Of a stretch of DNA of 64,000 nt, positions 14,170 to 47,568 are shown piece by piece; position 1 is the first letter of the stretch, and the number at the start of each line of letters is the position of its first letter. Location of the stretch: positions 1 through 64,000 of IMG/VR virus record IMGVR_UViG_3300033571_011534. One strand, written 5' to 3'. The notes beneath the pieces were generated by a model. The model was not told where the DNA came from. It searched no databases and saw only the letters and a list, made by a program, of their open reading frames with translations. A program made the position numbers and the translations under genes. The DNA comes from a virus.

Positions 14170-14829
14170 TTAGTACCTATTCCTTTGATAATGTCCAACT
14201 TCTTTTATAAAGCCCACAAGGACATATCTGATTGGGCCTTCTGAAACAAATTCTACTCCATGCTCATACTTTTCATTGCCTGGAAAAATCAACAAGCACT
14301 TTGGCTTTGGCCTTAGCTTTAAGCCTAAATTTTTAAAAAGTAACTCTCCATCTTTATAGTCATCATTGATATATGTAATAGCTGCATACCTAATAGATGG
14401 GTCTGTGTGCTGATCAGTATGAGACTTTAGCTCAACCCCTGGTTGCATTCTTTGAATTGTTGCAAGCCCACTGAGCTCTAGAGAGCTATCTGCCTCTCTG
14501 ACCATGGAAGCAAGCCTTTCATAAAAAACCCTATATTCTGGATATTTACTTATATTAAGATTTTTGTCTGTCCAGTTTTGAGTGATCTCGAACTTGCCCT
14601 CAGCCACAAGGTTATCTACGTCATCTCTTCCAAACTTTTCTATGCAAAAATTTTTTAAATTTGACATGTACTCAATTTCCCAGTCAGGTTGAGATGCCTC
14701 GTTAATTCTGTCTTGCAGAAAGCTTAAGTCTTCGTCTGTTAGGAAATTGTCAATAGATAGTAGCTCATCAGTTAGCTCTTCAAACGCAATGCCCCTATCT
14801 TTTAAAACTTCCTTTAACGACTCAATCAT
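14170..14829 (-). CDS. 2OG-Fe(II) oxygenase
   Basis: HTD...YINDDYKDGEL...HGV...RY; paralog of 51611-52279. Confidence 0.9.
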   Translation of the reverse strand: MIESLKEVLKDRGIAFEELTDELLSIDNFLTDEDLSFLQDRINEASQPDWEIEYMSNLKNFCIEKFGRDDVDNLVAEGKFEITQNWTDKNLNISKYPEYRVFYERLASMVREADSSLELSGLATIQRMQPGVELKSHTDQHTDPSIRYAAITYINDDYKDGELLFKNLGLKLRPKPKCLLIFPGNEKYEHGVEFVSEGPIRYVLVGFIKEVGHYQRNRY

Positions 14830-35895: not shown

Positions 35896-36078
35896 TCCGT
35901 TATCATTTTGTTATAATTAATACCCGCTGAAATCTGAAAAAATTTTCAAATTGACAAAAATCTGAATATTTTTTAACTATGTACGATACACGATCTTGCA
36001 AAAAAAATAAAAAAGCATAGTGAGCACACACGTACCCGTACGCCTTCTTACATTTTTTATGAGACTGGTGCCTGCTTT

Positions 36079-36294
36079 CTATTTTAGAATAGAAAGACTA
36101 GCTAATGCATCTTCTACATTGTCAAACATTGCAGTAAAAGCATCTAGTGATTTTTGCTTTCGCAATTCACCACACACTTTCAAATCGTGATTAGCTTTCC
36201 ATTTTTTAGCATCTAGGTAGTAGCTCAAAAAAGTTTCTTGTTCGTATTCACAATTTGAGCAACGAGTCTTGCGATACATTGTTGTTTTAGTCAT
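36079..36294 (-). CDS. Small early protein (CxxC)
   Basis: ORF track; AAAGGA RBS. Confidence 0.6.
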   Translation of the reverse strand: MTKTTMYRKTRCSNCEYEQETFLSYYLDAKKWKANHDLKVCGELRKQKSLDAFTAMFDNVEDALASLSILK

Positions 36295-36393
36295 TTAGTT
36301 ATTTTCCTTTTCATTTAGAGAGATTGTTAGTTGAGTGATTGAAGAGATTGCGTTATCGAACTCTTCCCAAGTTTCGAATGTTAGGGTAATCAT
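36295..36393 (-). CDS. Very small early protein (32 aa)
   Basis: MITLTFETWEEFDNAISS...; fills gap exactly between neighbours. Confidence 0.5.
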   Translation of the reverse strand: MITLTFETWEEFDNAISSITQLTISLNEKENN

Positions 36394-36591
36394 TTATTCA
36401 CCGTCCCAACAAGTGTTCCAGTCAGTTTCGCAAGGCTCCCAATACTGAAAGCTTGAGCAGAAAGCGCAACCTGCGAACTTATCGTGCTTGATACAGTAAG
36501 CCCTATCCTGGTATTCATCACAACAGCGGAATAGGTCATCACCGCTTAGGGTGTAGTAGTAATCACTTACCTTGAACATTGTTTGAGTCAT
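36394..36591 (-). CDS. Small Cys-rich early protein
   Basis: AGAAAGGAT RBS; ORF track. Confidence 0.6.
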   Translation of the reverse strand: MTQTMFKVSDYYYTLSGDDLFRCCDEYQDRAYCIKHDKFAGCAFCSSFQYWEPCETDWNTCWDGE

Positions 36592-36617
36592 AATTATCCT
36601 TTCTAAACTCTAGGTTT

Positions 36618-36665
36618 TTATTTGCTAGGCTCATACCGCTAAGGGTCTTATTTGCTAGGCTCATA
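36618..36665. repeat. 18-bp direct repeat TTATTTGCTAGGCTCATA x2
   Basis: 36618-36635 and 36648-36665. Confidence 0.9.
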
Positions 36666-36788
36666 ACCTTTTTTTTCTTATTTATTTATCTTGCTTTTAG
36701 CCTAACACGAACCTACGACATTTATACCCCTTTTTCTAGCCTTTTTGATACAAACTTTAGACTAATTTTTTGTAGGGTATCTACAAAG

Positions 36789-36818
36789 TTATCCACAGGC
36801 ATAGAATAGTTATCCACA
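36789..36818 (+). promoter_or_regulatory. Two perfect DnaA boxes (TTATCCACA)
   Basis: 36789-36797 and 36810-36818, 21 bp apart. Confidence 0.7.
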
Positions 36819-36972
36819 GGTGCGCCGAGGCCCTATATCTAGTAGTACTAATTAAGTTACGATACTAGATCTAGATCTCCCAGAATTATAACAAAATGAT
36901 AACAACAACGGCGTGTCGCTTGATAAATGTCGTAGGGTTGTGGTAGGTTGTTAGTAGTTAGAAAGGATAGAA

Positions 36973-37197
36973 ATGAATAACGAACTATTTGAGAAATTGG
37001 TATCACTAAAGACTGATACTCATACCGCTAGGTTTAGCGATGATGGCTCTGCCGTCAAACACGATGAAGAAAAATACCAAAAGGCTTTGGCTAGTCAAAA
37101 CGACTTTACTGATGAAGAGATAACAGCGGAGAGTGTTCGCCGTTGGAACCTGATGATACAGAAAATGAACGAGGCATACCAAGCCAAAATGTCCTAG
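36973..37197 (+). CDS. Small early protein
   Basis: AGAAAGGAT RBS; motif promoter upstream. Confidence 0.7.
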   Translation: MNNELFEKLVSLKTDTHTARFSDDGSAVKHDEEKYQKALASQNDFTDEEITAESVRRWNLMIQKMNEAYQAKMS

Positions 37198-37232
37198 GGT
37201 TATGCTAGGCTAATTTTAGAAAGAAGGAAAAA

Positions 37233-37412
37233 ATGGAAGAAAAAATCTGTGTATTTTGTATGAACCTAGTCAATGACTATGTATGCTTTGAGTGTGATGA
37301 CTACAAGGGTCTAATGCCACTAAAGGAAGCTGAGAGCTATCTAGGTGAGGACTTCCCTGAAGAGTACCGCCAACCAATGGCTATCTATGGGCAGAGGCTC
37401 TACTGGCAATAA
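37233..37412 (+). CDS. Small Cys-rich early protein (CxxC..CxxC)
   Basis: MEEKICVFC...CFEC; RBS and motif promoter. Confidence 0.65.
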   Translation: MEEKICVFCMNLVNDYVCFECDDYKGLMPLKEAESYLGEDFPEEYRQPMAIYGQRLYWQ

Positions 37413-37458
37413 ATGTCAGAGGGTCATGCTAGGTTATAAGTAATTAGAAAGGATAAAG

Positions 37459-37632
37459 ATGTACTACAACAGAGAAGCCCACCAACTACTAGAGGACACC
37501 CTAAAGGTTCTTCAGGCTAAAAGAAAACACGCCTACCCATACATGGTTGGACTACTAATGCCAAATGTTCCTTTGACAGAGGCTAAGAGAATTGCTAAGA
37601 TTGTAGAAGAAATGGAGAGTGAAAATGACTGA
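37459..37632 (+). CDS. Small early protein
   Basis: AGAAAGGATAAA RBS; MYYNREAHQLL. Confidence 0.65.
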   Translation: MYYNREAHQLLEDTLKVLQAKRKHAYPYMVGLLMPNVPLTEAKRIAKIVEEMESEND

Positions 37633-37801
37633 GGAAGATTTCGATGATTGGCTAGATGATGTTTATCCAACTTATCAAATTGCGGGGGTAGAGTTGCGTC
37701 CCTCACAAATGCTAAAGAACTGCGACCCTATCGCATACAGAATTGCGATGTCAGAATGTGAAGATAGAGAAGAGGAATGGAATGGCTACTTTGACAACTG
37801 A
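37625..37801 (+). CDS. Small acidic early protein
   Basis: FDDWLDDVYP...PSQMLKNCDPIAYR. Confidence 0.65.
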   Translation: MTEEDFDDWLDDVYPTYQIAGVELRPSQMLKNCDPIAYRIAMSECEDREEEWNGYFDN

Positions 37802-38021
37802 AGAACTAGAAACCCTAATTTTTCAAATTGACCTAATGCTATCTGATGACAAAATGTCTGAGGGTGTTGGTAGTCTTTTTACAACAAGAGAGGATAACTA
37901 AATGATTTTTTATAACGGATTCAATCTAATGATTGATTTGATTTTGGTTGCTGTTGTGTATGTTGTTGCTCACGGAATTGGATACCGCAAAGGCTTAGAC
38001 AAAAACAAAACACCATTTTAG
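37782..38021 (+). CDS. Two tiny ORFs (37782-37901; 37902-38021, hydrophobic)
   Basis: Abutting 39-aa ORFs with GAGGA RBSs. Confidence 0.5.
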
Positions 38022-38165
38022 CAACACGCCAAAGCCAGGGCTTGACAATTCTGGTTTTTTGGGCCGAGGCGATCTGATCGGGCCCCAAATTTTGTTTACG
38101 AAGATGTTTACGAAATTCCCAAAAAATCTCCCAAAAATGTCAGAGGGTCAATGTATAATAAGGCT

Positions 38166-38615
38166 ATGAAACTAGGAAAAGCTAATGAATCAAGACGCAA
38201 GGCGGAAAGTCAAGAACTATTCCGCAACTTACTAAAAGCTCCTCACCTAGTTTCTACCCCTCAAAAATACAAGGGTAGCCGTCAGTCTAACAAGACTAAC
38301 GCTATCAAGGAAAGTAGAGCAAGTGAGTAATTATAACTGTTGGGACTGTAATAAACTAACTAGACACTTATTCGAATACAGAACAATAAATGTCTGTGCC
38401 TCATGCTATGCTATTAGAGTTGGACACCCCTCAGCAAGAAAGTTGGTAAAGTAATGGGAAAGTATTCTGTTGGCTATGACGGTTTCGTTATCGTCAATGC
38501 TAAGAATGAGGAAGAGGCCTATAACAAGGCTAACAAGTATCTAAGCAAGACTAACCTTATCAATGATGGTGATGAGGGTGAATGGTATCTTACTGAAGCG
38601 GAAGAGATAAAGTAA
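38166..38615 (+). CDS. Three small overlapping ORFs (38166-38330, 38323-38454, 38454-38615)
   Basis: Leaderless first start; translational coupling. Confidence 0.55.
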
Positions 38616-38917
38616 TGGGAAGAATGACGGCCATGTCAATTGCAGAGACAGATGTATCACTAGAGCAACAACTAGCCTGGCACCTTCAAGGGAATCACTA
38701 TCCACCAATTCCAAAAGCAATGGTTCAACCCTGCATAGACGCTATTGACGCTTATTGGGAAGAGGACTATGACAGACTAATCCAATTGCCAATTGATGGC
38801 TTAGACCGTAATGGAGAGCCATTCCAAATTAGATGGCGTGATGGCTCAGACAAGGCCCCTGCATGGGCATTAGTTGAACACGCTCACCTTGACAGTTGGC
38901 TGCCTGAAATAGAATAA
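38615..38917 (+). CDS. Hypothetical protein
   Basis: WHLQGNHYPP motif; TAATG coupling. Confidence 0.7.
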   Translation: MGRMTAMSIAETDVSLEQQLAWHLQGNHYPPIPKAMVQPCIDAIDAYWEEDYDRLIQLPIDGLDRNGEPFQIRWRDGSDKAPAWALVEHAHLDSWLPEIE

Positions 38918-38961
38918 ATGTCAGACGTCGTCTGTATAATTGTCTAAGAAAGGATACCCCA

Positions 38962-39681
38962 ATGCCCCTAATACGTTCAAAAGATAGAAAGGTAACAAAT
39001 GCTGTATCTCCGAATGGTAAGTCGCCCACTATTGCTAACACCTTTGGGCTTCCGTCTGGTAAAGCGTTTTCCTGCCCTGGAGCGACTAGTGTATGCGAGA
39101 AAGTCTGCTACGCTGGCAAGCTTGAGAAAATCTACAAGGGAGTAAAAGACGTTCTTCTAAACAATTGGGACCTGCTACGTAATGCAGACCAATTGGAGAT
39201 GGAAGCGCTACTTTACCAAATGATAGATGAGTTTGATAAAGACTGTAACAAGCGCAATGCAGAAAAGCTGTTTCGAATTCACTGGGATGGAGACTTCTTC
39301 AATGAGACTTACACTCACGCTTGGAAGAATGTAATCAAGGCTTGGCCTAGCATTCAATTCTGGGTATACACTCGTTCAGACTTTTCGGTACCTATTCTTA
39401 GCGATGTTGACAACCTTAGCCTGTACTTCTCAACTGATGATGACAACTGGCAGCTGGCTAGTAAGTTGAAGCAAGAGACTGGCGTCAAGCTTGCATACCT
39501 TGCCAATAACTTTGCAATGGGTAAAGAGCGGATGTTGTCTATAACACCTAAGTCTGCAATTCCTTGTCCTGAGAATGCTAAGAAACTTCCGCTAATCAGT
39601 GACAAGGGCTCCGCCTGCGTAACTTGCGGACAGTGTGTGTTCGCTCGCAATGACATTTTATTTAGCGCTAGCAAAAAGTAA
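38962..39681 (+). CDS. Gp88-like (radical-SAM-like Cys motif) protein
   Basis: FGLPSG..SCPGAT.VCEKVCYA; FRIHWDGDF; FWVYTR; C-terminal Cys cluster. Confidence 0.75.
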   Translation: MPLIRSKDRKVTNAVSPNGKSPTIANTFGLPSGKAFSCPGATSVCEKVCYAGKLEKIYKGVKDVLLNNWDLLRNADQLEMEALLYQMIDEFDKDCNKRNAEKLFRIHWDGDFFNETYTHAWKNVIKAWPSIQFWVYTRSDFSVPILSDVDNLSLYFSTDDDNWQLASKLKQETGVKLAYLANNFAMGKERMLSITPKSAIPCPENAKKLPLISDKGSACVTCGQCVFARNDILFSASKK

Positions 39682-39800
39682 GGAGATGAGGTAAAATATA
39701 CCATGGACGCATTTTATATCATAACTATTTTACTTCTTATGTCTCTATTGCTAGTCTCTACTAATCGAAAATAGACTCATGCTATAGGGGCATGTAAACT

Positions 39801-39836
39801 GTAGGGATCTTCTTACATCCTTTCTTAGGTCCTTAC
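39801..39836 (+). ncRNA. Hairpin with anti-RBS loop (UCUUACAUCCUUUCUU)
   Basis: 10-bp stem with 2 G-U pairs. Confidence 0.55.
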
Positions 39837-39864
39837 CGTCCTGGCTACGACGTAAAACTGGCCA
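39837..39864 (+). ncRNA. H-type pseudoknot motif, copy 1
   Basis: CGTC-CTGGCTAC-GACG-TAAAAC-TGGCCA. Confidence 0.55.
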
Positions 39865-39979
39865 CAATCTGGGCCGAGGGCTTTATAACAAAATAATAAA
39901 GATTTAAGATCCTTTACGACACGCTCCCAAAATGTCGTAGGGTTGGTGTATAGTAATACTACCTAACAGAAAGTAGAGT

Positions 39980-40543
39980 ATGGGAACTAGAGGAATAACA
40001 GAAGTAATTTACAATGGCGAGACTGTAGTTAGCCAGTATGGTCAATGGGACCACTACCCAAGCGGTCAGGGTATCACAGCGTTCAAGTTTCTACGCAGCC
40101 AAGAAAACATCGACAACCTAAAGAAAAACCTTAGCCTAGTCTATGTTCCAAGTGATGAGGAATACAAGTCTATTGTTAGCAAGTATTCTGATGAGCGTGG
40201 AATGATGACTATGGAGCAAGGTGAAGAGTATAGCAAGATGTATCCAAGTCTTACTAGAGATACTGGTGCTGGTATCCTTGAGGTAATTGCTAACGCTACC
40301 AATCCAGTTCCGTTGTTCCTGGACCTAGAGTTCAAAAACGACAGACTGTTTTGTGAGGGTGTCTACACAATCAACCTAGATGACAACACTTTCACAACTA
40401 GATACAATCGCTATGAAAATGAAAATGATGAAGATACTTTGACTTTATCTTTTGAGCAGATTCTTTACACAGGTGAAGATGACTATCTGGAAAAAGCAAA
40501 GTGTGGAGTCTATCAGTATCTCAAGGCTGAGGCTTTAGCCTAA
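39980..40543 (+). CDS. Hypothetical phage protein
   Basis: MGTRG...QYGQWDHYPSGQG; GAAAGTAG RBS. Confidence 0.75.
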   Translation: MGTRGITEVIYNGETVVSQYGQWDHYPSGQGITAFKFLRSQENIDNLKKNLSLVYVPSDEEYKSIVSKYSDERGMMTMEQGEEYSKMYPSLTRDTGAGILEVIANATNPVPLFLDLEFKNDRLFCEGVYTINLDDNTFTTRYNRYENENDEDTLTLSFEQILYTGEDDYLEKAKCGVYQYLKAEALA

Positions 40544-40766
40544 CAAAGATACCCTGCCAGCTTGACAAACTGGTGGGGATCTGGTCGGGCCCAAAACTAG
40601 TAATTTGTCAAGTTTACGATTATAACAATTTTTCCCCTGAATTGTTATAAAAAAAATAGGGCGTGGCTCTTGATAATGTCGGAGGTATGCCCTATAATTT
40701 AGGAGTAGCAAAAACGACTACTAAATAGAAAAATCCTAGTGGAAAGACTAGGTGAAAGGAAGCAAA

Positions 40767-40922
40767 ATGGCAAATGTAATTGCCCCCGTTGTTGGCTCAC
40801 AATACACTACTCAGAAATCAGGTGTTTCTGGGATTGTTCAGGAAGTAGTGGCAAATAAGACTGGCACTTATCGTGTTCGTCTTGATGTAAATGGTCAGCC
40901 ACGCTGGACAACTATCAAGTAA
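40767..40922 (+). CDS. Small beta-rich early protein (51 aa)
   Basis: GAAAGGA RBS; MANVIAPVVGSQYTTQKSG. Confidence 0.65.
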   Translation: MANVIAPVVGSQYTTQKSGVSGIVQEVVANKTGTYRVRLDVNGQPRWTTIK

Positions 40923-40933
40923 TAAATTAGTTT

Positions 40934-40970
40934 GAGGGGGTAGAGTTATTTATCCTTTCGCTACCCCCTC
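40934..40970 (+). ncRNA. Hairpin with anti-RBS loop (AGUUAUUUAUCCUUUCG)
   Basis: Perfect 10-bp stem GAGGGGGTAG/CTACCCCCTC. Confidence 0.55.
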
Positions 40971-41030
40971 TCCTAAAATGTCTTACCCTGCCCCTATAAT
41001 GTAATTACCCCAAATAGAAAGTAGAAACAA

Positions 41031-41477
41031 ATGGCTAGAACCCTGTCCGTAAAAGTTCCAACAAGCAAACTAATCGCAGACATTGAGGCAAGTATTGCTA
41101 AGATTGACGCAGACATTGAGGCGTATGCTGGAAAGCGTAAGCAGTATGAAGCAGACATAAAGCAGTATGAGAAAGACCTTGTTGCTTTTGCGATTGACGC
41201 ACTAAAGAACCCAGACAACATTGGAACAGAACACAACGCACTAATTCGCATCACAACCAACAACTACCGCAACGCTGTATCTGTTGATTTTGATACTGAG
41301 GCACTTGGCTTTCCAAAGCGACCAGAAGAGCCAGCCAGACCAAATGAAAAAAGTTATTTTGGTAGGGACTACACCACACGCAAGGAAATCCTAGAGAAGA
41401 ACCTTCGTATTCTCAAGATGACCTCGCAAGAGGAAGTATCAGCGAGTTCATACTCATCTGTTATTGACCTAATCTAA
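41031..41477 (+). CDS. Hypothetical coiled-coil protein
   Basis: GAAAGTAG RBS; motif promoter. Confidence 0.75.
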   Translation: MARTLSVKVPTSKLIADIEASIAKIDADIEAYAGKRKQYEADIKQYEKDLVAFAIDALKNPDNIGTEHNALIRITTNNYRNAVSVDFDTEALGFPKRPEEPARPNEKSYFGRDYTTRKEILEKNLRILKMTSQEEVSASSYSSVIDLI

Positions 41478-41479
41478 TC

Positions 41480-41747
41480 TTATTCGCACAAATACTGTGT
41501 AGGCAACTACTCTAAAGCTGAAGCGAATAATCACCTGAGCAAGTGGCTAAACTGCTCACTAGATTTGGTAAGGCAGATGCTATTTGCTGTTGCTGAATAG
41601 AAGTGAGTGCTAGCACAAAAACTTCGTTCCTTACCTCCAAAGATTGATCCTGCTAATTGTAATGGTACACTGGGCTTGGATCAATACCCCCTGTTGCAAT
41701 CAATTTGATAGATGCCCAGTTCGAACGAAGCATCTCGCAGGGGGATC
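41480..41747 (+). ncRNA. Structured non-coding RNA cluster, includes pseudoknot copy 2 (41532-41558)
   Basis: Multiple nested stems and a putative kissing loop; no ORF. Confidence 0.55.
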
Positions 41748-41895
41748 TTCCCATTTTTGGGTCGGGCCGCCGTTACCAAATTGTTATTTACGAAGACTAA
41801 TTATTTTTTCCTAGATTCTTGACAAATGTCAGAGGGTGGCTGTAAAATAGTCTCAACAAACAAATAACTAATAACCCTAATAGAAAGTAGATAAA

Positions 41896-42897
41896 ATGGC
41901 ACACTTGCTAGAACAGTCCGCAACAGGCGAAACCGCTTTTGCTTCTTTTCGTGAGCCTGCTTGGCACCAGCTAGGCACAGTTTTCAATGAAGAAGTCTCA
42001 ACTAACAAGATGTTGAAACTCGCACACCTTGACAACTGGAATGTTCGCTTGGAAGATGTAGCGATTCCAAATGGTTTTGAGAGTGACAAGAATTATTTCT
42101 TCGTGACTAGAACTAACCCATTCAACAAAGAGCAAAATGATGTCCTTGGCGTAGTTGGTGAAAGATACAATGTTCTTCAGAATGAAGACTTATTTGATTT
42201 CGGTGATGCCCTGCTAGATGGTGGTCGCTGGGAAACTGCTGGTTCAATCAAGAACGGAAGACAGGTTTTCGGTTCTCTTGCTCTTGAGCGTGAAACAGTT
42301 CTTGACCCTAACGGCGTGTCAGATGTTGTAAAGTCTTATTTGCTAATCAACACTAGCCACGACGGCTCAGTTGCTATTCAGGCAAGTATCACACCTGTTC
42401 GTGTTGTATGTGCTAACACTCTAAATCTTGCTCTTGGTAAAGGCAACAGAGGTGTCAAGCAAACTTTCAAGATTCGCCACACCGCAACAGCATCTGGCAA
42501 GGTTGCTCAAGCTAGAGAGGCTCTTGGTCTTGCTAATAAGTATCTTGATGAGTTTGATAAGCTTGCTCAGTCTATGATTGCTAAAGAAATTACTAAGGCT
42601 CAGTTTGACAAGATTGTTGAGCTTGCTTATCCAAAGCCTGACAAGGACACAAAGGGTGCTGTCAAGAAGTGGGAAAACAAAACAGACATTCTTCAGGGAA
42701 TCTATGTTGGCTCAACTAACGGAATGATTGCTGGAACTGCTTGGGGTGCTTTCAACGCTCTAACAGAGAGACTAGACTGGTATCGCACTGCTAGAGGTGG
42801 TTCTAACGAATCTATTCTAGCTGCTGCTTCTGGTTTTGACCCTGTGACTACCGCAGAAAAGAACAGACTGCTTCAGCTGGTCTTGGCTAACGCCTAG
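41896..42897 (+). CDS. DUF932-family phage/plasmid protein
   Basis: PAWHQLG, YNVLQNEDLF, WETAGSIKNGRQVF, SHDGS, TPVRVVCANTL, GTAWGAFNA. Confidence 0.85.
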   Translation: MAHLLEQSATGETAFASFREPAWHQLGTVFNEEVSTNKMLKLAHLDNWNVRLEDVAIPNGFESDKNYFFVTRTNPFNKEQNDVLGVVGERYNVLQNEDLFDFGDALLDGGRWETAGSIKNGRQVFGSLALERETVLDPNGVSDVVKSYLLINTSHDGSVAIQASITPVRVVCANTLNLALGKGNRGVKQTFKIRHTATASGKVAQAREALGLANKYLDEFDKLAQSMIAKEITKAQFDKIVELAYPKPDKDTKGAVKKWENKTDILQGIYVGSTNGMIAGTAWGAFNALTERLDWYRTARGGSNESILAAASGFDPVTTAEKNRLLQLVLANA

Positions 42898-42902
42898 CCA
42901 AA

Positions 42903-42929
42903 AGTCCTGAGCATGACTAAAAACTGCTC
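42903..42929 (+). ncRNA. H-type pseudoknot motif, copy 3
   Basis: AGTC-CTGAGCAT-GACT-AAAAAC-TGCTC. Confidence 0.55.
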
Positions 42930-43088
42930 TCCATTCATTTGCCAGGATCTAAAATTTTGGGCCGAGGGCCTAAAATAAACTTAATTAATAAAAAATCTTA
43001 ATTACGAACTATCAAAAAAATTCGCAGAAATCTTGATAAATGTCGGAGGGTCATGTCATAATAGACCTACCCTAAAGAAAGTAGACAA

Positions 43089-43283
43089 ATGCCCAAATAC
43101 TATGTGAAGATGCGTATTGACTTTGCTGGTGAGCTAGAAGCAGAATCAGCTGAGGCAGCCGAACAACTAGCTTGGACTAGTTGGGGAGACTCTATGGACA
43201 ACGACATAACCTATGATGGTGTTTATGACATTGACGTAGAAGAGATTGAAGATGATGAGGAAGATGAGGAAGAAGATGAATAA
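43089..43283 (+). CDS. Small very acidic protein
   Basis: GAAAGTAG RBS; EAESAEAAE motif. Confidence 0.7.
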   Translation: MPKYYVKMRIDFAGELEAESAEAAEQLAWTSWGDSMDNDITYDGVYDIDVEEIEDDEEDEEEDE

Positions 43284-43418
43284 GCACTTCCGCTGCCAGA
43301 CTACAATTTCTTTTGACCAGGTATCAGATGGATACTATGCACAATGCCCTAGTTGCGATGAAGACCTATTTAGTTTTGAGGTCGTATAATGTCAGAGGGT
43401 AGTGTTATAGTATCTACT

Positions 43419-43655
43419 ATGAAAGTATGCCCCAATCATTCAGGTAGTTTTGACTGTACCCCCTTTTGTCGTATCTGTGAGGGAAACCAGGAGTACGAGT
43501 CAAACGGCTACCTACCATGTAACAGATTCGGCCACTGTGGAGAATACATTGAGGAGGACATCTGGCATGAGGAGCTAGGCTTCTGTGTTGAATGTTCTCA
43601 CTTATACTGGGACCAAGAGCTAGACCCATTTACACTAGAGAGGATAGAGCAGTGA
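43419..43655 (+). CDS. Small Cys-rich protein
   Basis: Leaderless start 7 nt after TATAGT. Confidence 0.6.
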   Translation: MKVCPNHSGSFDCTPFCRICEGNQEYESNGYLPCNRFGHCGEYIEEDIWHEELGFCVECSHLYWDQELDPFTLERIEQ

Positions 43656-44097
43656 AAGAGTGGACCACCTTTATAAATAAATCTAATAAGAATGAGTTTG
43701 AGACTCTGCTAGCAGACATAATGTCAGAGGCTCTTGCTAAACTAGATACTGTCCCTGATGAAGAACTAGAAAGGCTAATTGACTGTGAGTAAAACTTGGC
43801 AAGTAGAATACAACGCTACCTATTGGGTAGAAGCAGAAACAGAAGACGAGGCTATTGAGTTGGCTATTGAATCACACGCTGACCTACCTAACGGAGACTG
43901 GGAAGCACACATTGAGCAGAAGTGGGAGACGAAAGCATAATGGCTACCAGCGAAATGGAAAAGATTGGATACGAGAATGGTATTAGATTTGCTATTCATT
44001 CCATAGAAAAATCTCTAGACAATCCAGCACTAAACATCTTGACACCAAAGCAGAGTCTTGGTATCCTATTAGCATCACTAAGAATGGAGATTCAGTA

Positions 44098-44295
44098 ATG
44101 TCCTATGTATTAGAACAAACAAGCTATGTTTCAGAAGACGGAAACTTTGGAACAGGCTACCTACTAACATTCCCCTACAATGCGCTGACTGAAGAGCAGT
44201 GGGAAGTATTGGACATGCTAAACGATAGCTCTAAGATGGAGTATGCCCACGCTATCCTAAATGGACAGGCTGACCTATCGGAGTGGGAAGGCTAA
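44098..44295 (+). CDS. Small acidic protein
   Basis: ORF track. Confidence 0.6.
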   Translation: MSYVLEQTSYVSEDGNFGTGYLLTFPYNALTEEQWEVLDMLNDSSKMEYAHAILNGQADLSEWEG

Positions 44296-44567
44296 TGGCC
44301 AAAGAGGTCTGGAGTGTGTCTGTCTACAAAGAAGGCATAATCGAAATAGACACTGATGAAATGACTATCGAACAGGCGGTAGAGGATTGGGTCTATGACC
44401 TGGAAGTTGACTACGACCTAATTGAAAGAGTGGAAGGCTAGTCCTTCCATTTTTTCGGTCGGGGCTGATCTTTAAATAAAATACTTATAAATAAAAAACC
44501 TTTAAGATCTCATTATTTTTTTTCCCAGATCCTTGATAATGTCAGTGGGTAGCAGTATACTATAGTC

Positions 44568-44954
44568 ATGAAAGTAAAGTTGATTGATCCAGAAAAAGCT
44601 AAAAACGTATTGGGACTAGACAAGGAAGAGCACTGGGTTGCCCCTTCTGTTGTTGTCAACACCCCCAAAGGCCTAGCCGTAGTTTGCTATGAAGGTGTAG
44701 GCTGGTTCGAAAACGAGGGCAAGTACAAGATCCTTGTTGGAGATGAATGGAATGATTGGGTAAAAGAAATCACTAAGGATGAACTTATTAGTATTATTTC
44801 TAATAAGGAAACTACCCTTCATCAGTTAATTGATCCGCACAATGATAGGACTAGATCTAATCTATCGATCTGGGAGAATCAGATTAAGAATACCCCGCAA
44901 AATGTCGTAGGGTTAGGTTATAATGAGGAAAAGAAAGAGGTGGCAAATGCCTGA
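44568..44954 (+). CDS. Hypothetical protein
   Basis: Leaderless, 6 nt after TATACT of motif promoter. Confidence 0.7.
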   Translation: MKVKLIDPEKAKNVLGLDKEEHWVAPSVVVNTPKGLAVVCYEGVGWFENEGKYKILVGDEWNDWVKEITKDELISIISNKETTLHQLIDPHNDRTRSNLSIWENQIKNTPQNVVGLGYNEEKKEVANA

Positions 44955-45126
44955 ATACAAAGTTCAAAGAGAGTACACCAACTGGGAAGAAATTACAGTT
45001 GAGGCAGATTCGGAAGAGCAAGCTTTAGAGATTGCAGAGGACGACGAAGACTTATGGAACTATGCAATTGATGCTAGTTCATATAATTACACAGGTGAGA
45101 CCTGGGTAGGAGAAGCAGATGCCTAA
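44947..45126 (+). CDS. Small acidic protein
   Basis: VEADSEEQALEIA motif; GAGGTG RBS. Confidence 0.65.
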   Translation: MPEYKVQREYTNWEEITVEADSEEQALEIAEDDEDLWNYAIDASSYNYTGETWVGEADA

Positions 45127-45289
45127 GCACATGCATTACTTTAGCTATGGAGCCTGCATTCATTGCGGTAAGGCAGTCAACAAAGGCCTTGGCGTAGACC
45201 TGTACAAGGGAAAAAGGGTTTAAGAACCCTCTTGACAAAATCCCAGAATCCTGAGATAATAGTTTTACCCTAGAGAAAGTATAACCCCA

Positions 45290-45694
45290 ATGGAGAACAC
45301 AAAAGTAGAAGCGCCCTACACAGAGTACCAAGGTTGGAACGAATGGGCAGATAAATACAAGCCTATCAAGAATCACTTACGCAATGACCCAGACGAAACC
45401 ATGTTCGAGACCTATGGCGAAGAGGTTGAGTTTGTATCTAACTATGACAACAAGTATGTCTGGACCTATTTGCAAGGAGACATGTCTGACCTTATTTGTG
45501 CAGGCTATCACTATGTAAATAGATTAGGATACTACATCTCTGAGGTACCGTGGACGAACGAGGATGACTATGTCCTGCTATCAGTAGAAGTAGAATGCAA
45601 ATGCTACGACGAAGATGCATACGACGATGGTGGTTTTGGAAATCCAGAATGCCAAGAATGTGAAGGGTATGGCTATGTCACAAATTATGTATAG
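45290..45694 (+). CDS. Hypothetical protein with C-terminal Cys motifs
   Basis: FETYGEE...VWT...GYHYVNRLGYY. Confidence 0.7.
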   Translation: MENTKVEAPYTEYQGWNEWADKYKPIKNHLRNDPDETMFETYGEEVEFVSNYDNKYVWTYLQGDMSDLICAGYHYVNRLGYYISEVPWTNEDDYVLLSVEVECKCYDEDAYDDGGFGNPECQECEGYGYVTNYV

Positions 45695-46046
45695 GAATAA
45701 GAACAGAGACAAGACCAAGGTCGTCTATGACCTAAACATCTTTAAACGTGAGCTATTAAACGACGAAGGTGAATACGAGCACATGGGCCCCTGGTACATT
45801 CATATCTATGAATACGACGGTGGCAATATCGAAGAGGTAGGCGATCCGATTGAGTTGACGTCTGCTGAAGCTGATAGTCTTATTAATAATGACCCATACT
45901 TTCAAAACCATGAGCCAGACCTATGGTACGGCCTGGAGGGATTCATGTTTGAAAAGTGGGATGCATTGCCAGACAGGCTTAAGGCTGTATTTGAATGGTT
46001 ACCCAAGTACAAGGAAGACATGGGGTATGGCCTTGTCAATGATTAA
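45687..46046 (+). CDS. Hypothetical acidic protein
   Basis: ORF track (start trimmed to MYRNK). Confidence 0.6.
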   Translation: MYRNKNRDKTKVVYDLNIFKRELLNDEGEYEHMGPWYIHIYEYDGGNIEEVGDPIELTSAEADSLINNDPYFQNHEPDLWYGLEGFMFEKWDALPDRLKAVFEWLPKYKEDMGYGLVND

Positions 46047-46118
46047 ACTAAGATTGATGCGTTGAGCCAAGCTCCGCATCATATGGATACGACAGTTAGG
46101 GGTAGCTAGCGTATCCAG

Positions 46119-46158
46119 GGGGTGTCAGGACTTTTCCTACTTTCAGTCTTGACACCCC
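46119..46158 (+). ncRNA. Hairpin with anti-GAAAGTAG loop (UUUCCUACUUUC)
   Basis: 14-bp stem with one G-U. Confidence 0.55.
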
Positions 46159-46197
46159 AACCAATTTGTGGGATAATGGGCACAGGAGAATAACCAA

Positions 46198-46398
46198 TTG
46201 ACAATGAGTGATGAAGAAAAGGTCGCAGTAAAAATTACTGGACTTCTTTCTGACCATAGGCTAAACTTAGACAGGGTTGGCTTGTATGTGGCAAGAGAAG
46301 AACCAAGTAGCAATTACAGACGACTAATGATTGTGGCAGAAGCCGCTGATGAGGAATGGGAGAGCAGGTATGGCAGACACGACAGCAACAAGCTATGA
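46198..46398 (+). CDS. Hypothetical protein
   Basis: TTGACA-18-GATAAT promoter, AGGAG RBS. Confidence 0.65.
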   Translation: MTMSDEEKVAVKITGLLSDHRLNLDRVGLYVAREEPSSNYRRLMIVAEAADEEWESRYGRHDSNKL

Positions 46399-46660
46399 GG
46401 CAAAGTGTGAAATCCTTGCTGATGTTTGGATAGAGTATAGAGATGAAGAAGCCTTTCAGGAACTGATGGAGTTTGCTGACTTAGGCTTTCCACTTGCGTA
46501 TGCTGTTCAGGGCGGTATCATAGAGAGCAACGAACGAGTAGAAGAATTAGTAGAGGGAACTTTCACCTTGCTACTTCAGTTGCTCAAAGTTGATGACACT
46601 GGCTTTGACAGTATCACCCAGCTCTTTGACAAATCCGAAGAAGCAAATAAATCAAAATAA
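46370..46660 (+). CDS. Hypothetical acidic protein (paralog of 50983-51258)
   Basis: KCEILADVW...DLGFPLAY...DDTGF. Confidence 0.7.
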   Translation: MADTTATSYEAKCEILADVWIEYRDEEAFQELMEFADLGFPLAYAVQGGIIESNERVEELVEGTFTLLLQLLKVDDTGFDSITQLFDKSEEANKSK

Positions 46661-46908
46661 TTTTTGACCCAGCTTGACATTCGATCAAGACTGTGGTCGG
46701 GGTATGTTATCAAAATGTTATCAAACCACTATTGACAAAACCTTTACGATGGACTATAATATTTCCCTGAAATTTGATCGAGGTCTATCCAAACCTCAAA
46801 CCTTATATTGTTTAACATATTACGATCATCTGTAAAAAATCGCTGAAATATTTTACATATAGGTTTGGGTATTTTTGGCAATCTTATCAAACATGATATA
46901 CTTATGCC

Positions 46909-47106
46909 ATGAGTCCAAGACATTTCTATAGAGCATACTATCCAGAAGAAGCCAAGAAGATGGATCAAGCATATGCTGAAGCTGGTGTTATTATTGTAGA
47001 TACTGTTACTAGAGCATTTAAGAGGTTTGTTATTCCTTTCTTTGTACCTGGCCTCAGGGAGACTAATAATACTGACAAAGATAATGCCAAGGGCATCAAA
47101 GAATAA
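46909..47106 (+). CDS. Hypothetical protein
   Basis: TGATATACT -10 just upstream. Confidence 0.5.
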   Translation: MSPRHFYRAYYPEEAKKMDQAYAEAGVIIVDTVTRAFKRFVIPFFVPGLRETNNTDKDNAKGIKE

Positions 47107-47568
47107 CCCCATTCCCCCCTATATAAATAACATTACGAAGAACATAAAAAAATCGCTGAAATCTTTTTCTTTTGGCCAGATTTCATTTAAAATGGTTTAG
47201 TTTTTGATATTTTTATGGCCATATTTTATATAAAAAATGCTTGACATTTGACGGATATTATGGTATAAAGGTTTGGCGTTTAAGGGGTGTAAGGGTTTGG
47301 GGTTTGGTAAATGATTACGAGTTTAAGTTAATATGTGCTCCATTATCCACTATCCTCCATATCACTCCACTTTAACTCTATTAAACTTAATAAACAGTAA
47401 GATCTTTTATCCAAAACATGGTCTCTAAACATGCTCTAAATAGCCACAGAATCGATTTTGAGGGGGGTATACAAACCTTCGTATCTTGGATGTGGGGCTA
47501 TGGGGATATCTGGATATCAGGCTTATTTCTCTATAGTGTTATTGGTTATATAGGGGATGGTGGTTTGA

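Follow-up and report, generated by a model that had tools for sequence, protein, structure and literature searches.

Why does the early region of a phage genome carry, between its genes, hairpins whose large pyrimidine loops are complementary to the ribosome-binding sites (RBSs) of early genes? Here we address this question for a window of 64,000 nucleotides (nt), the first 64 kilobases (kb) of the 75.7-kb virus record IMGVR_UViG_3300033571_011534 in IMG/VR (~67 % complete, ~40 % G+C). An initial annotation, made from the letters of this window, had singled out three such hairpins, H1, H2 and H3, and read them as parts of an antisense timer of early gene expression. We show that these hairpins are a real, conserved and strand-specific RNA motif, found in relatives of this phage in untranslated 3′ regions (3′UTRs) of early transcription units. 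Comparison of loops and start regions further supports an antisense reading: the loops match phage sites beyond what mimicry of the 16S ribosomal RNA (rRNA) tail explains.

The host is very probably an actinobacterium, given the kinship of the portal protein (47 % identity to portals of 130-kb Streptomyces phages) and of the gene preceding H1 (a Pfam match to the GP88 family, which is common to cluster A mycobacteriophages and Streptomyces phages), the many leaderless-looking genes, and the fit of the Shine-Dalgarno (SD) boxes of the genome to a 16S tail with the end UCCUUUCU. The last eight bases of actinobacterial 16S rRNA are UCCUUUCU. A megablast search found no match to the region among GenBank phages. 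The relatives analyzed here are 80 IMG/VR loci at 60-95 % identity, found with the GP88-family protein as query, and the large genomes compared are G000, G001, G004 (complete, 116 kb) and G005.

A hairpin family with an invariant loop core

Fold computation yields the three hairpins as they had been described, all on the + strand. H1 (39801-39836) has a 10-base-pair (bp) stem with two G-U pairs and a 16-nt loop (39811-39826, UCUUACAUCCUUUCUU); H2 (40934-40970) has a 10-bp G-C-rich stem and a 17-nt loop (40944-40960, AGUUAUUUAUCCUUUCG); H3 (46119-46158) has a 14-bp stem with one G-U pair and a 12-nt loop (46133-46144, UUUCCUACUUUC). The first two loops are anti-SD loops of class I and the third is of class II, after the two classes of early sites that they fit. 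Compared with shuffled sequences, H2 (z=-3.9) and H3 (z=-3.4) are the more stable, while the signal of H1 is weak (z=-1.5). The assignment to the + strand from G-U pairs holds for H1 and H3, and the folding of H1 is limited to that strand; H2 is a perfect palindrome whose minus strand folds too.

By sequence, H1 and H2 each lie in a 3′UTR, past a stop codon and ahead of the promoter that comes next: H1 follows the GP88-family gene, and H2 begins 12 nt past the stop codon of a 51-amino-acid (51-aa) gene and adjoins the promoter that follows. The 3′ arm of H3 contains the -35 box TTGACA (46149) of the following promoter. A canonical intrinsic terminator would have a G-C-rich stem with a loop of 3-8 nt followed by a U tract. 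The three hairpins do not fit this description: their loops, at 12-17 nt, are too large, no T run follows them, and none was reported by a terminator scan.

The loop motif is strongly associated with hairpins across the relatives. In a set of 77 unique related IMG/VR loci (624 kb), 42 of the 76 gene-strand TCCTTTC sites (55 %) fall in loops of hairpins with at least 7 pairs, whereas such loops make up 1.75 % of the gene strand and hold 3.6 % of the sites of other permutations of the word. This corresponds to an enrichment of ~15-30 fold, in a test that is independent of hairpin selection. A blind scan of all loci recovered 44 gene-strand hairpins with CCTTTC in the loop, against 0-3 for control words. 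Just 27 of these 44 can also be detected on the opposite strand, so the other 17, found on the gene strand only, depend on G-U pairs.

These counts bear on the simplest alternatives, namely that the hairpins reflect a feature of the DNA or of the minus strand, such as an inverted RBS remnant, an operator or a cruciform, or that they are a chance coincidence. The palindromic H2 with its minus-strand fold and the overlap of H3 with a -35 box would suit such a feature, but G-U pairs are found on the gene strand only in H1, H3 and 17 of the 44 hairpins of relatives, no start codon follows the minus-strand SD, and the stems vary freely around a fixed loop; the size of the enrichment argues against chance. 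We consider this group of explanations extremely improbable. A reading of the minus strand as a displayed SD or a CsrA-type GGA loop was tried and rejected, as H1 has no minus-strand fold and no start codon follows.

Among 29 distinct hairpins the core TCCTTTC is invariant in the loop (family consensus UUAUCCUUUCU) and the stem sequences are unrelated. The expectation that loops would be conserved in related phages while stems vary is thus borne out. There are two to three copies per genome (G000, G001, G004, G005), all in the early region and on the early-gene strand, placed after a stop codon and before the next promoter, in the 3′UTRs of early transcription units. Positional homologues of H1 with the same loop core and other stems occur in L009, L011, L014, L017-L023 and L086. 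All closer relatives carry a hairpin 3′ of the GP88 orthologue, where the loop keeps (A)UCCUUUCU on stems as different as gtagggatct, ctagggatct, gggacct, gtaggtcccc, ggtccgca and tggtccaca. Homologues of H2 follow the 51-aa gene in 8 distinct relatives, and those of H3 in G001, G003, G004 and G005 keep the loop UUUCCUACUUUC with an altered inner stem and with G-U pairs confined to the gene strand. In the GP88 region (8.4 kb) of a cultured relative, Streptomyces phage Circinus, GAAAGG sites are present and no CCUUUC-loop hairpin was found.

Stem and loop can also part company. L017 (5152-5190), 3′ of the 48-aa orthologue, holds the H2 stem (GGGGTAG/CTACCCC, extended) with a 7-nt loop, UCACUCG, that lacks the anti-SD motif, a natural variant that separates stem from loop. 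In some relatives the 51-aa gene is followed by a pseudoknot alone. As the position is not fixed, the anti-SD loop behaves as optional cargo of a gene-end hairpin. The motif corresponds to no Rfam family: a cmscan of 36000-47500 at E<=1 returned one chance match, HOTAIR_2. A covariance model built on five H1-type seeds (R1) recovered H1-type hairpins and a few distant members and missed H2 and H3; the pair counts were therefore taken from the custom hairpin scan instead.

Loops and early start regions

Every complementarity quoted in the initial annotation was confirmed. The H1 loop is complementary over 10 nt to the site at 38946; the H2 loop over 11 nt to that at 37447 and over 10 nt to the minus-strand site at 36594; and the H3 loop over 8 nt (GAAAGTAG) to those at 38310, 39969, 41017, 41883 and 43077. 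Class I loops, UAUCCUUUCU, fit AGAAAGGAUAA sites, and class II loops, CCUACUUUC, fit AGAAAGUAG sites. The class I sites include GAAAGGAUAA (36594-36603, minus strand) of a 65-aa gene (36394-36591), AGAAAGGAUA (36960-36969, + strand) of a 74-aa gene (36973-37197) and AGAAAGGAUAAA (37446-37457, + strand) of a 57-aa gene (37459-37632). Class II is represented by GAAAGUAG (39969-39976, + strand) in front of a 187-aa gene and by its further copies at the four other positions fitted by H3. The proposal that site usage switches from one class to the other right after H1 is largely right, but the gene that H2 follows uses GAAAGGAAG (40754-40762).

Such matches are concentrated where translation begins. 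The word GAAAGGAT occurs in 8 copies in the 75.7-kb genome, of which four are RBSs and two are loops in reverse reading, and nearly all same-strand exact complements of at least 10 nt, genome-wide, are start regions. No start region is complementary to the genome's other large-loop hairpins (20888, 33830, 51285).

Part of this complementarity is explained by the 16S tail, which the loops resemble; the remainder points to the phage sites themselves. The complement of the loops reads GAAAGG-A(97%)-U(72%)-A, where the 16S tail would need G-G. A U after GAAAGG-A occurs in just 22 % of the 395 GAAAGG sites of these phages; the sites that the loops fit are thus a subset, class I. In relatives, exact matches between loop and site reach 12-16 nt and exceed the pairing range of the 16S tail at both ends. 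In the close relative G001, which has the same loop as H2, three start regions are matched from the SD to the start codon, over 15, 14 and 14 nt. G004 has exact complements of 12, 11, 11 and 11 nt at start regions, plus one of 12 nt; L020 and L021 each share a 16-nt exact match between loop and start region; and in L024-L027 the match of 13-15 nt (GAAAGAAAGGAUAA) continues beyond the point where the 16S tail ends on its 3′ side. The claim that two classes of early RBSs have complements in the loops therefore stands beyond the part owed to the tail.

Loops and sites also change together in some genomes. Class II loops hold the base that compensates the G-to-U change in AGAAAGUAG sites. G003 pairs a loop ..UUUCUACUUUCA with a site UGAAAGUAGAAA, and G004 a loop ..UUUCCUACUUUCA with a site GAAAGUAGGAAA, the latter at the homologue of the 39969 start region and with an H3-type loop; a 12-nt duplex is kept in both through changes on the two sides. 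L090 carries the variant pair UACCUUUC with GAAAGGUA. The loops are a better fit to the locus they come from than to others (median percentile 0.16, Wilcoxon p=0.007). Against versions with shuffled flanks, 10 of the 29 do better at p<0.05. The expected tracking of site by loop is thus seen, but only sometimes.

The deviations from the 16S tail also weigh on a different explanation, according to which the hairpins are 3′-end elements with a part in forming, stabilising or terminating the message, and their loop is read by a protein (an RNA-binding protein of the phage, or a host factor whose normal ligand is the 16S 3′ tail), with no start-region pairing. Such a protein would find UCCUUUCU, the 16S 3′ end, in the loops; the hairpins stand at gene ends, in most cases with a conserved pseudoknot directly behind them; L017 holds the H2 stem with a 7-nt loop; and a conserved small beta-barrel protein of 51 aa is encoded just 5′ of H2. 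This protein (59-82 % identity across 16 distinct relatives), considered as a possible RNA chaperone, is predicted to adopt a four-strand small beta fold (predicted local distance difference test score, pLDDT, 80); it has no Pfam or PHROG matches, and a Foldseek search with the predicted fold gave no clear relative, just weak Tudor, SH3 and KOW-like rows. A protein reading the 16S end leaves unexplained that the loops deviate from the tail where the phage sites deviate from a perfect SD (UA for CC, and in class II A for C), that they outrun the end of the tail, and that loop and site variants change jointly, and its termination part meets the absence of a canonical intrinsic terminator among H1-H3. 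We hold this explanation to be unlikely.

A further pairing was noted in a complete distant relative (L117, G006), where the loop UACCUUUCCUUGGU... of a hairpin at 14637-14685 is complementary over 12 nt to ACCAAGGAAAGG, which lies 10 kb off in the start region of a 66-aa gene. It may represent another class of loop and site.

Within one message or between messages

That the loops pair with early start regions and so control early protein synthesis is the reading we favour, and we give it about an even chance. In this reading, + strand hairpins at the untranslated 3′ ends of the phage's early transcription units would present, on a G-C-rich stem of any sequence, a pyrimidine loop of 12-23 nt that is antisense to the SD box and flanks of a subset of early genes. 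The loop would pair with the start region in competition with the 16S tail for the same bases, and pairing would limit or shut off translation of the target genes; what the data establish is the structure, strand, conservation, position and complementarity of the hairpins, while pairing in the cell, its repressive sign and its timing are inferred. Two routes can be envisaged. The loop could act on its own message, between 5′UTR and 3′UTR, as is suggested by H1 with a neighbouring hairpin (hp0) for the GP88 gene and by H2 for the 51-aa gene; or a stable 3′UTR fragment could act on other early messages that share the site.

The first route is suggested by the surroundings of the GP88 gene. The H1 loop has its best duplex partner, among 125 start regions of the window, in its own GP88 gene (-15.8 kcal/mol), and the H2 loop in its own 51-aa gene (40767-40922, + strand; -16.9), which has the SD GAAAGGA (40754-40760) and forms a unit of ~280 nt ending in H2. 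The GP88-gene start region (38946-38970, + strand) is composed of the SD AAGAAAGGAU (38946-38955), a CCCC spacer and AUGCCCCUA, the start codon and two following codons (38962-38970) of a gene that spans 38962-39681. Just 5′ of H1, the small + strand hairpin hp0 (39778-39794), CAUGC-UAUAGGG-GCAUG, contains 9 nt, UAGGGGCAU (39785-39793), that are the exact complement of AUGCCCCUA. The order of an anti-start element followed by an anti-SD element is colinear with antiparallel pairing to SD and then start codon. Of 12 relatives, 7 retain an exact complement of 8-10 nt between hp0 and start while both partners vary, for instance the hp0 variant CAUAGGGGUA with the start region UACCCCUAUG in L022. 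When hp0 was shuffled, 0.6 % of the trials attained 8 nt; cognate pairs did better than non-cognate pairs (permutation p 0.02-0.04), and the hp0 stems covary among relatives. An hp0-like + strand hairpin (GGAUAC/GUAUCC, 46085-46116, loop UUAGGGGUA) lies 5′ of H3 and is kept in G001 and G005; it fits the CCCC in the start region at 45274-45292 only weakly, over 5 complementary nt.

Best partners in their own genes and an hp0 that fits the start codon point at least equally to pairing between 5′UTR and 3′UTR, and autoregulation between the two ends of one message is at least as likely as the two-step cascade that had been proposed. In that cascade, loops of later transcripts silence the preceding RBS class, and perhaps AGAAAGGA-led host messages, while the genes that follow escape because their site is altered or they are leaderless. 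The order of class I genes, H1/H2, class II genes and H3 is indeed kept in G000, G001, G003 and G004, genes past 43.4 kb are leaderless or have other sites, and the loops would fit any strong AGAAAGGA host site. The temporal part is not supported by the position of the hairpins, which lie in 3′UTRs of early genes with the same promoter type as the proposed targets and show no sign of delay; nothing therefore marks them as later transcripts. H1 and H2, moreover, find their best partners in their own genes, and the gene of H2 has a class I-like site downstream of H1. We regard the cascade as quite improbable, and both the timer and host-message silencing as conjecture.

Pairing within one message could instead have a positive effect, if the joined ends shielded a very short 5′UTR from a 5′ exonuclease and stabilised the message. 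The 5′UTRs are ~17-25 nt long, which places the SD at the very 5′ end, and an interaction between 5′UTR and 3′UTR is reported for B. subtilis hbs (PMC5737220). Pairing over SD and start codon should, however, block initiation, and the best partners in relatives are mostly other genes. This makes stabilisation distinctly doubtful as the role of the hairpins.

In relatives, the longest matches are with small early genes 2-5 kb upstream, as the second route would have it. Pairing within one message was rejected as a general rule on two grounds, the rank of the own gene and the misfit of H3 in G005, both given below.

Several observations weigh against translational control by these loops. Of 31 hairpins of relatives, only 5 have the start region of their own gene in first rank, so that pairing within the message cannot be general. 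G005 keeps the H3 loop though the site of its own unit is AAGAGAGGA, and has one class II site of 8 nt. For the three window loops, the match past the core CCUUUC is not longer than that of flank-shuffled loops (p=0.27, 0.11 and 0.40), and the best duplex partners of the H3 loop among window start regions are late genes. At the orthologous place L089 carries a different loop and, together with the L017 variant, indicates that the hairpin may have a separate job, e.g. 3′-end formation. Finally, the statistics across relatives are not phylogenetically independent.

A bolder version of translational control, which we rate as unlikely, is that these phages have given their immediate-early genes private SD extensions in two classes, together with matching antisense loops in stable, pseudoknot-capped 3′UTR fragments that achieve shutoff by RNA alone. 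If this were true, each class of early proteins would be switched off once enough message had been completed, and the system would stand beside T4 RegB as its RNA counterpart, built in modules and open to retargeting through a loop change. Early-gene shutoff in actinophages is largely unknown, and a search of the literature on phage-encoded regulatory RNAs acting on RBSs returned nothing for actinophages; any stem with a fixed loop matched to an RBS class is a testable hypothesis. The motif offers a search pattern for other phages and possibly a compact tool with which translation could be controlled class by class in actinobacteria. Even if 3′-end function alone holds, a large group of environmental phages would share a conserved RNA element that has not been catalogued.

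Neighbouring elements and known systems

The anti-SD hairpins belong to a composite intergenic module. Directly 3′ of H1 lies an H-type pseudoknot (39837-39864, + strand; CGUC-CUGGCUAC-GACG-UAAAAC-UGGCCA), with a second copy at 41532-41558. The element, of ~27 nt, has a short stem, a loop CUGRSYA and then UAAAA and the complement of the loop. It directly follows most anti-SD hairpins in relatives (L015 7958-7990, L024 5690-5725, L027, L028, L034, L051), and its loop and downstream partner strand covary (UGAGCCA/UGGCUCA, UAGGCA/UGCCUA). The pseudoknot is followed in turn by a small G-C hairpin, a spacer rich in A-T and a promoter.

At least 12 early promoters (36915-44925) share a box ATGTCRGAGGGT ~5-6 nt 5′ of a -10 of TATAAT or TAGGTT type, and a TTGAYA -35 is present in only some of them; examples are at 36920, 37190, 37413, 38135, 38918, 39930, 40672, 40975, 41822, 43037, 43390, 44537 and 44900. 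The leaderless-looking genes (window 26641, 27306, 32594, 33800, 43419, 44568, 48150, 49327, 56456 and 58699; genome 65097) have a TATAAT-like hexamer 6-8 nt 5′ of ATG and no SD box. Several repeats accompany these elements. A perfect DnaA-box-like word, TTATCCACA, occurs twice, with 21 nt from start to start (36789-36797 and 36810-36818), in the divergent region 5′ of the first early genes, and pairs of TGTGGATAA occur in intergenic modules of L034 and L039 ~90-130 nt past the hairpin. Two gene-end hairpins, at 38029-38055 and 40552-40578, carry TTGACA in the loop (CCAG-GGCTTGACAATT-CTGG and CCCTGCCAG-CTTGACAAA-CTGGTGGGG), and a longer-range inverted repeat, CTTGACAAA / TTTGTCAAG (40561-40569 with 40604-40612), surrounds a GGTCGGGCCC word. 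Just upstream of the minus-strand 65-aa gene there is a direct repeat of ~19 nt, CTTATTTGCTAGGCTCATA, in two copies (36610-36665).

How do the hairpins relate to known systems? The proposed mechanism has precedents in the icaR 3′UTR, the actinobacterial 6C loops and the cuckoo RNAs, and the element also recalls P1 c4. T4 RegB is an endoribonuclease that selectively inactivates early messages of the phage via a sequence in their SD regions (PMC3014915). The likeness is one of function only: RegB is a protein nuclease that cuts GGAG, whereas the agent proposed for this phage is an RNA loop.

The c4 RNA of phages P1 and P7 is a processed RNA of ~77 nt that lies upstream of its target and serves immunity. 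Citron and Schuster reportedly found in 1990 that its loops pair with the ribosome-binding region of icd on the same transcript. The RNA shares an operon with its target genes icd and ant1/2, full repression of ant requires it, and it acts at a C4 binding site of that region (PMC8198154, citing Citron and Schuster 1990). Here too an RNA is proposed to act against the start regions of target genes, but the phage hairpins lie 3′ of genes and have many possible targets. They show no sequence similarity to c4, and the covariance model of C4 antisense RNA gave no match to 36000-47500 (Rfam, E<=1).

In S. aureus, RNAIII and RsaE carry UCCC loops. The loops of RNAIII terminator hairpins pair with SD regions (PMC3868564), and the actinobacterial 6C small RNA (sRNA), found in high-G+C Gram-positives, uses pyrimidine-rich loops to bind target messages without a chaperone (PMC6486639). 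The 6C model found no match in 36000-47500, where the phage loops are mixed in U and C with at most CC. 6C loops are C runs and not UCCUUUCU, and they belong to stand-alone host sRNAs and not to phage 3′UTRs.

The closest likeness in construction is with the cuckoo or CcsR (alpha-r14) RNAs of Alphaproteobacteria, which combine variable stems with a fixed, anti-SD-like pyrimidine loop (PMC4615179), as do the 29 hairpins with their invariant TCCTTTC. Cuckoo RNAs consist of 2-4 adjacent hairpins each with CCUCCUCCC, whereas the phage has single hairpins with UAUCCUUUCU or CCUACUUUC, next to which hp0 carries AUAGGGG, and no Rfam match at E<=1 was obtained. CcsR1-4 are described as cellular sRNAs, unlike the phage hairpins.

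In S. aureus icaR, an anti-SD motif in the 3′UTR pairs with the SD of its own message, which keeps ribosomes from loading and generates a site for RNase III, and its authors leave action in cis and in trans both possible (PMC3868564). H1 and H2 likewise place an anti-SD motif in a 3′UTR. Their best partners in the window are their own genes, but in relatives the own gene comes first for only 5 of 31 hairpins. The phage motif differs in being displayed in the loop of a variable-stem hairpin, with a second hairpin that would cover the start codon, and in occurring two to three times per genome and fitting several other early genes.

The phage hairpins are a member of none of these families, no Rfam model matches them, and a search of the literature found no description of such elements in actinophages. 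By analogy, the element would work like icaR and be built like the cuckoo RNAs.

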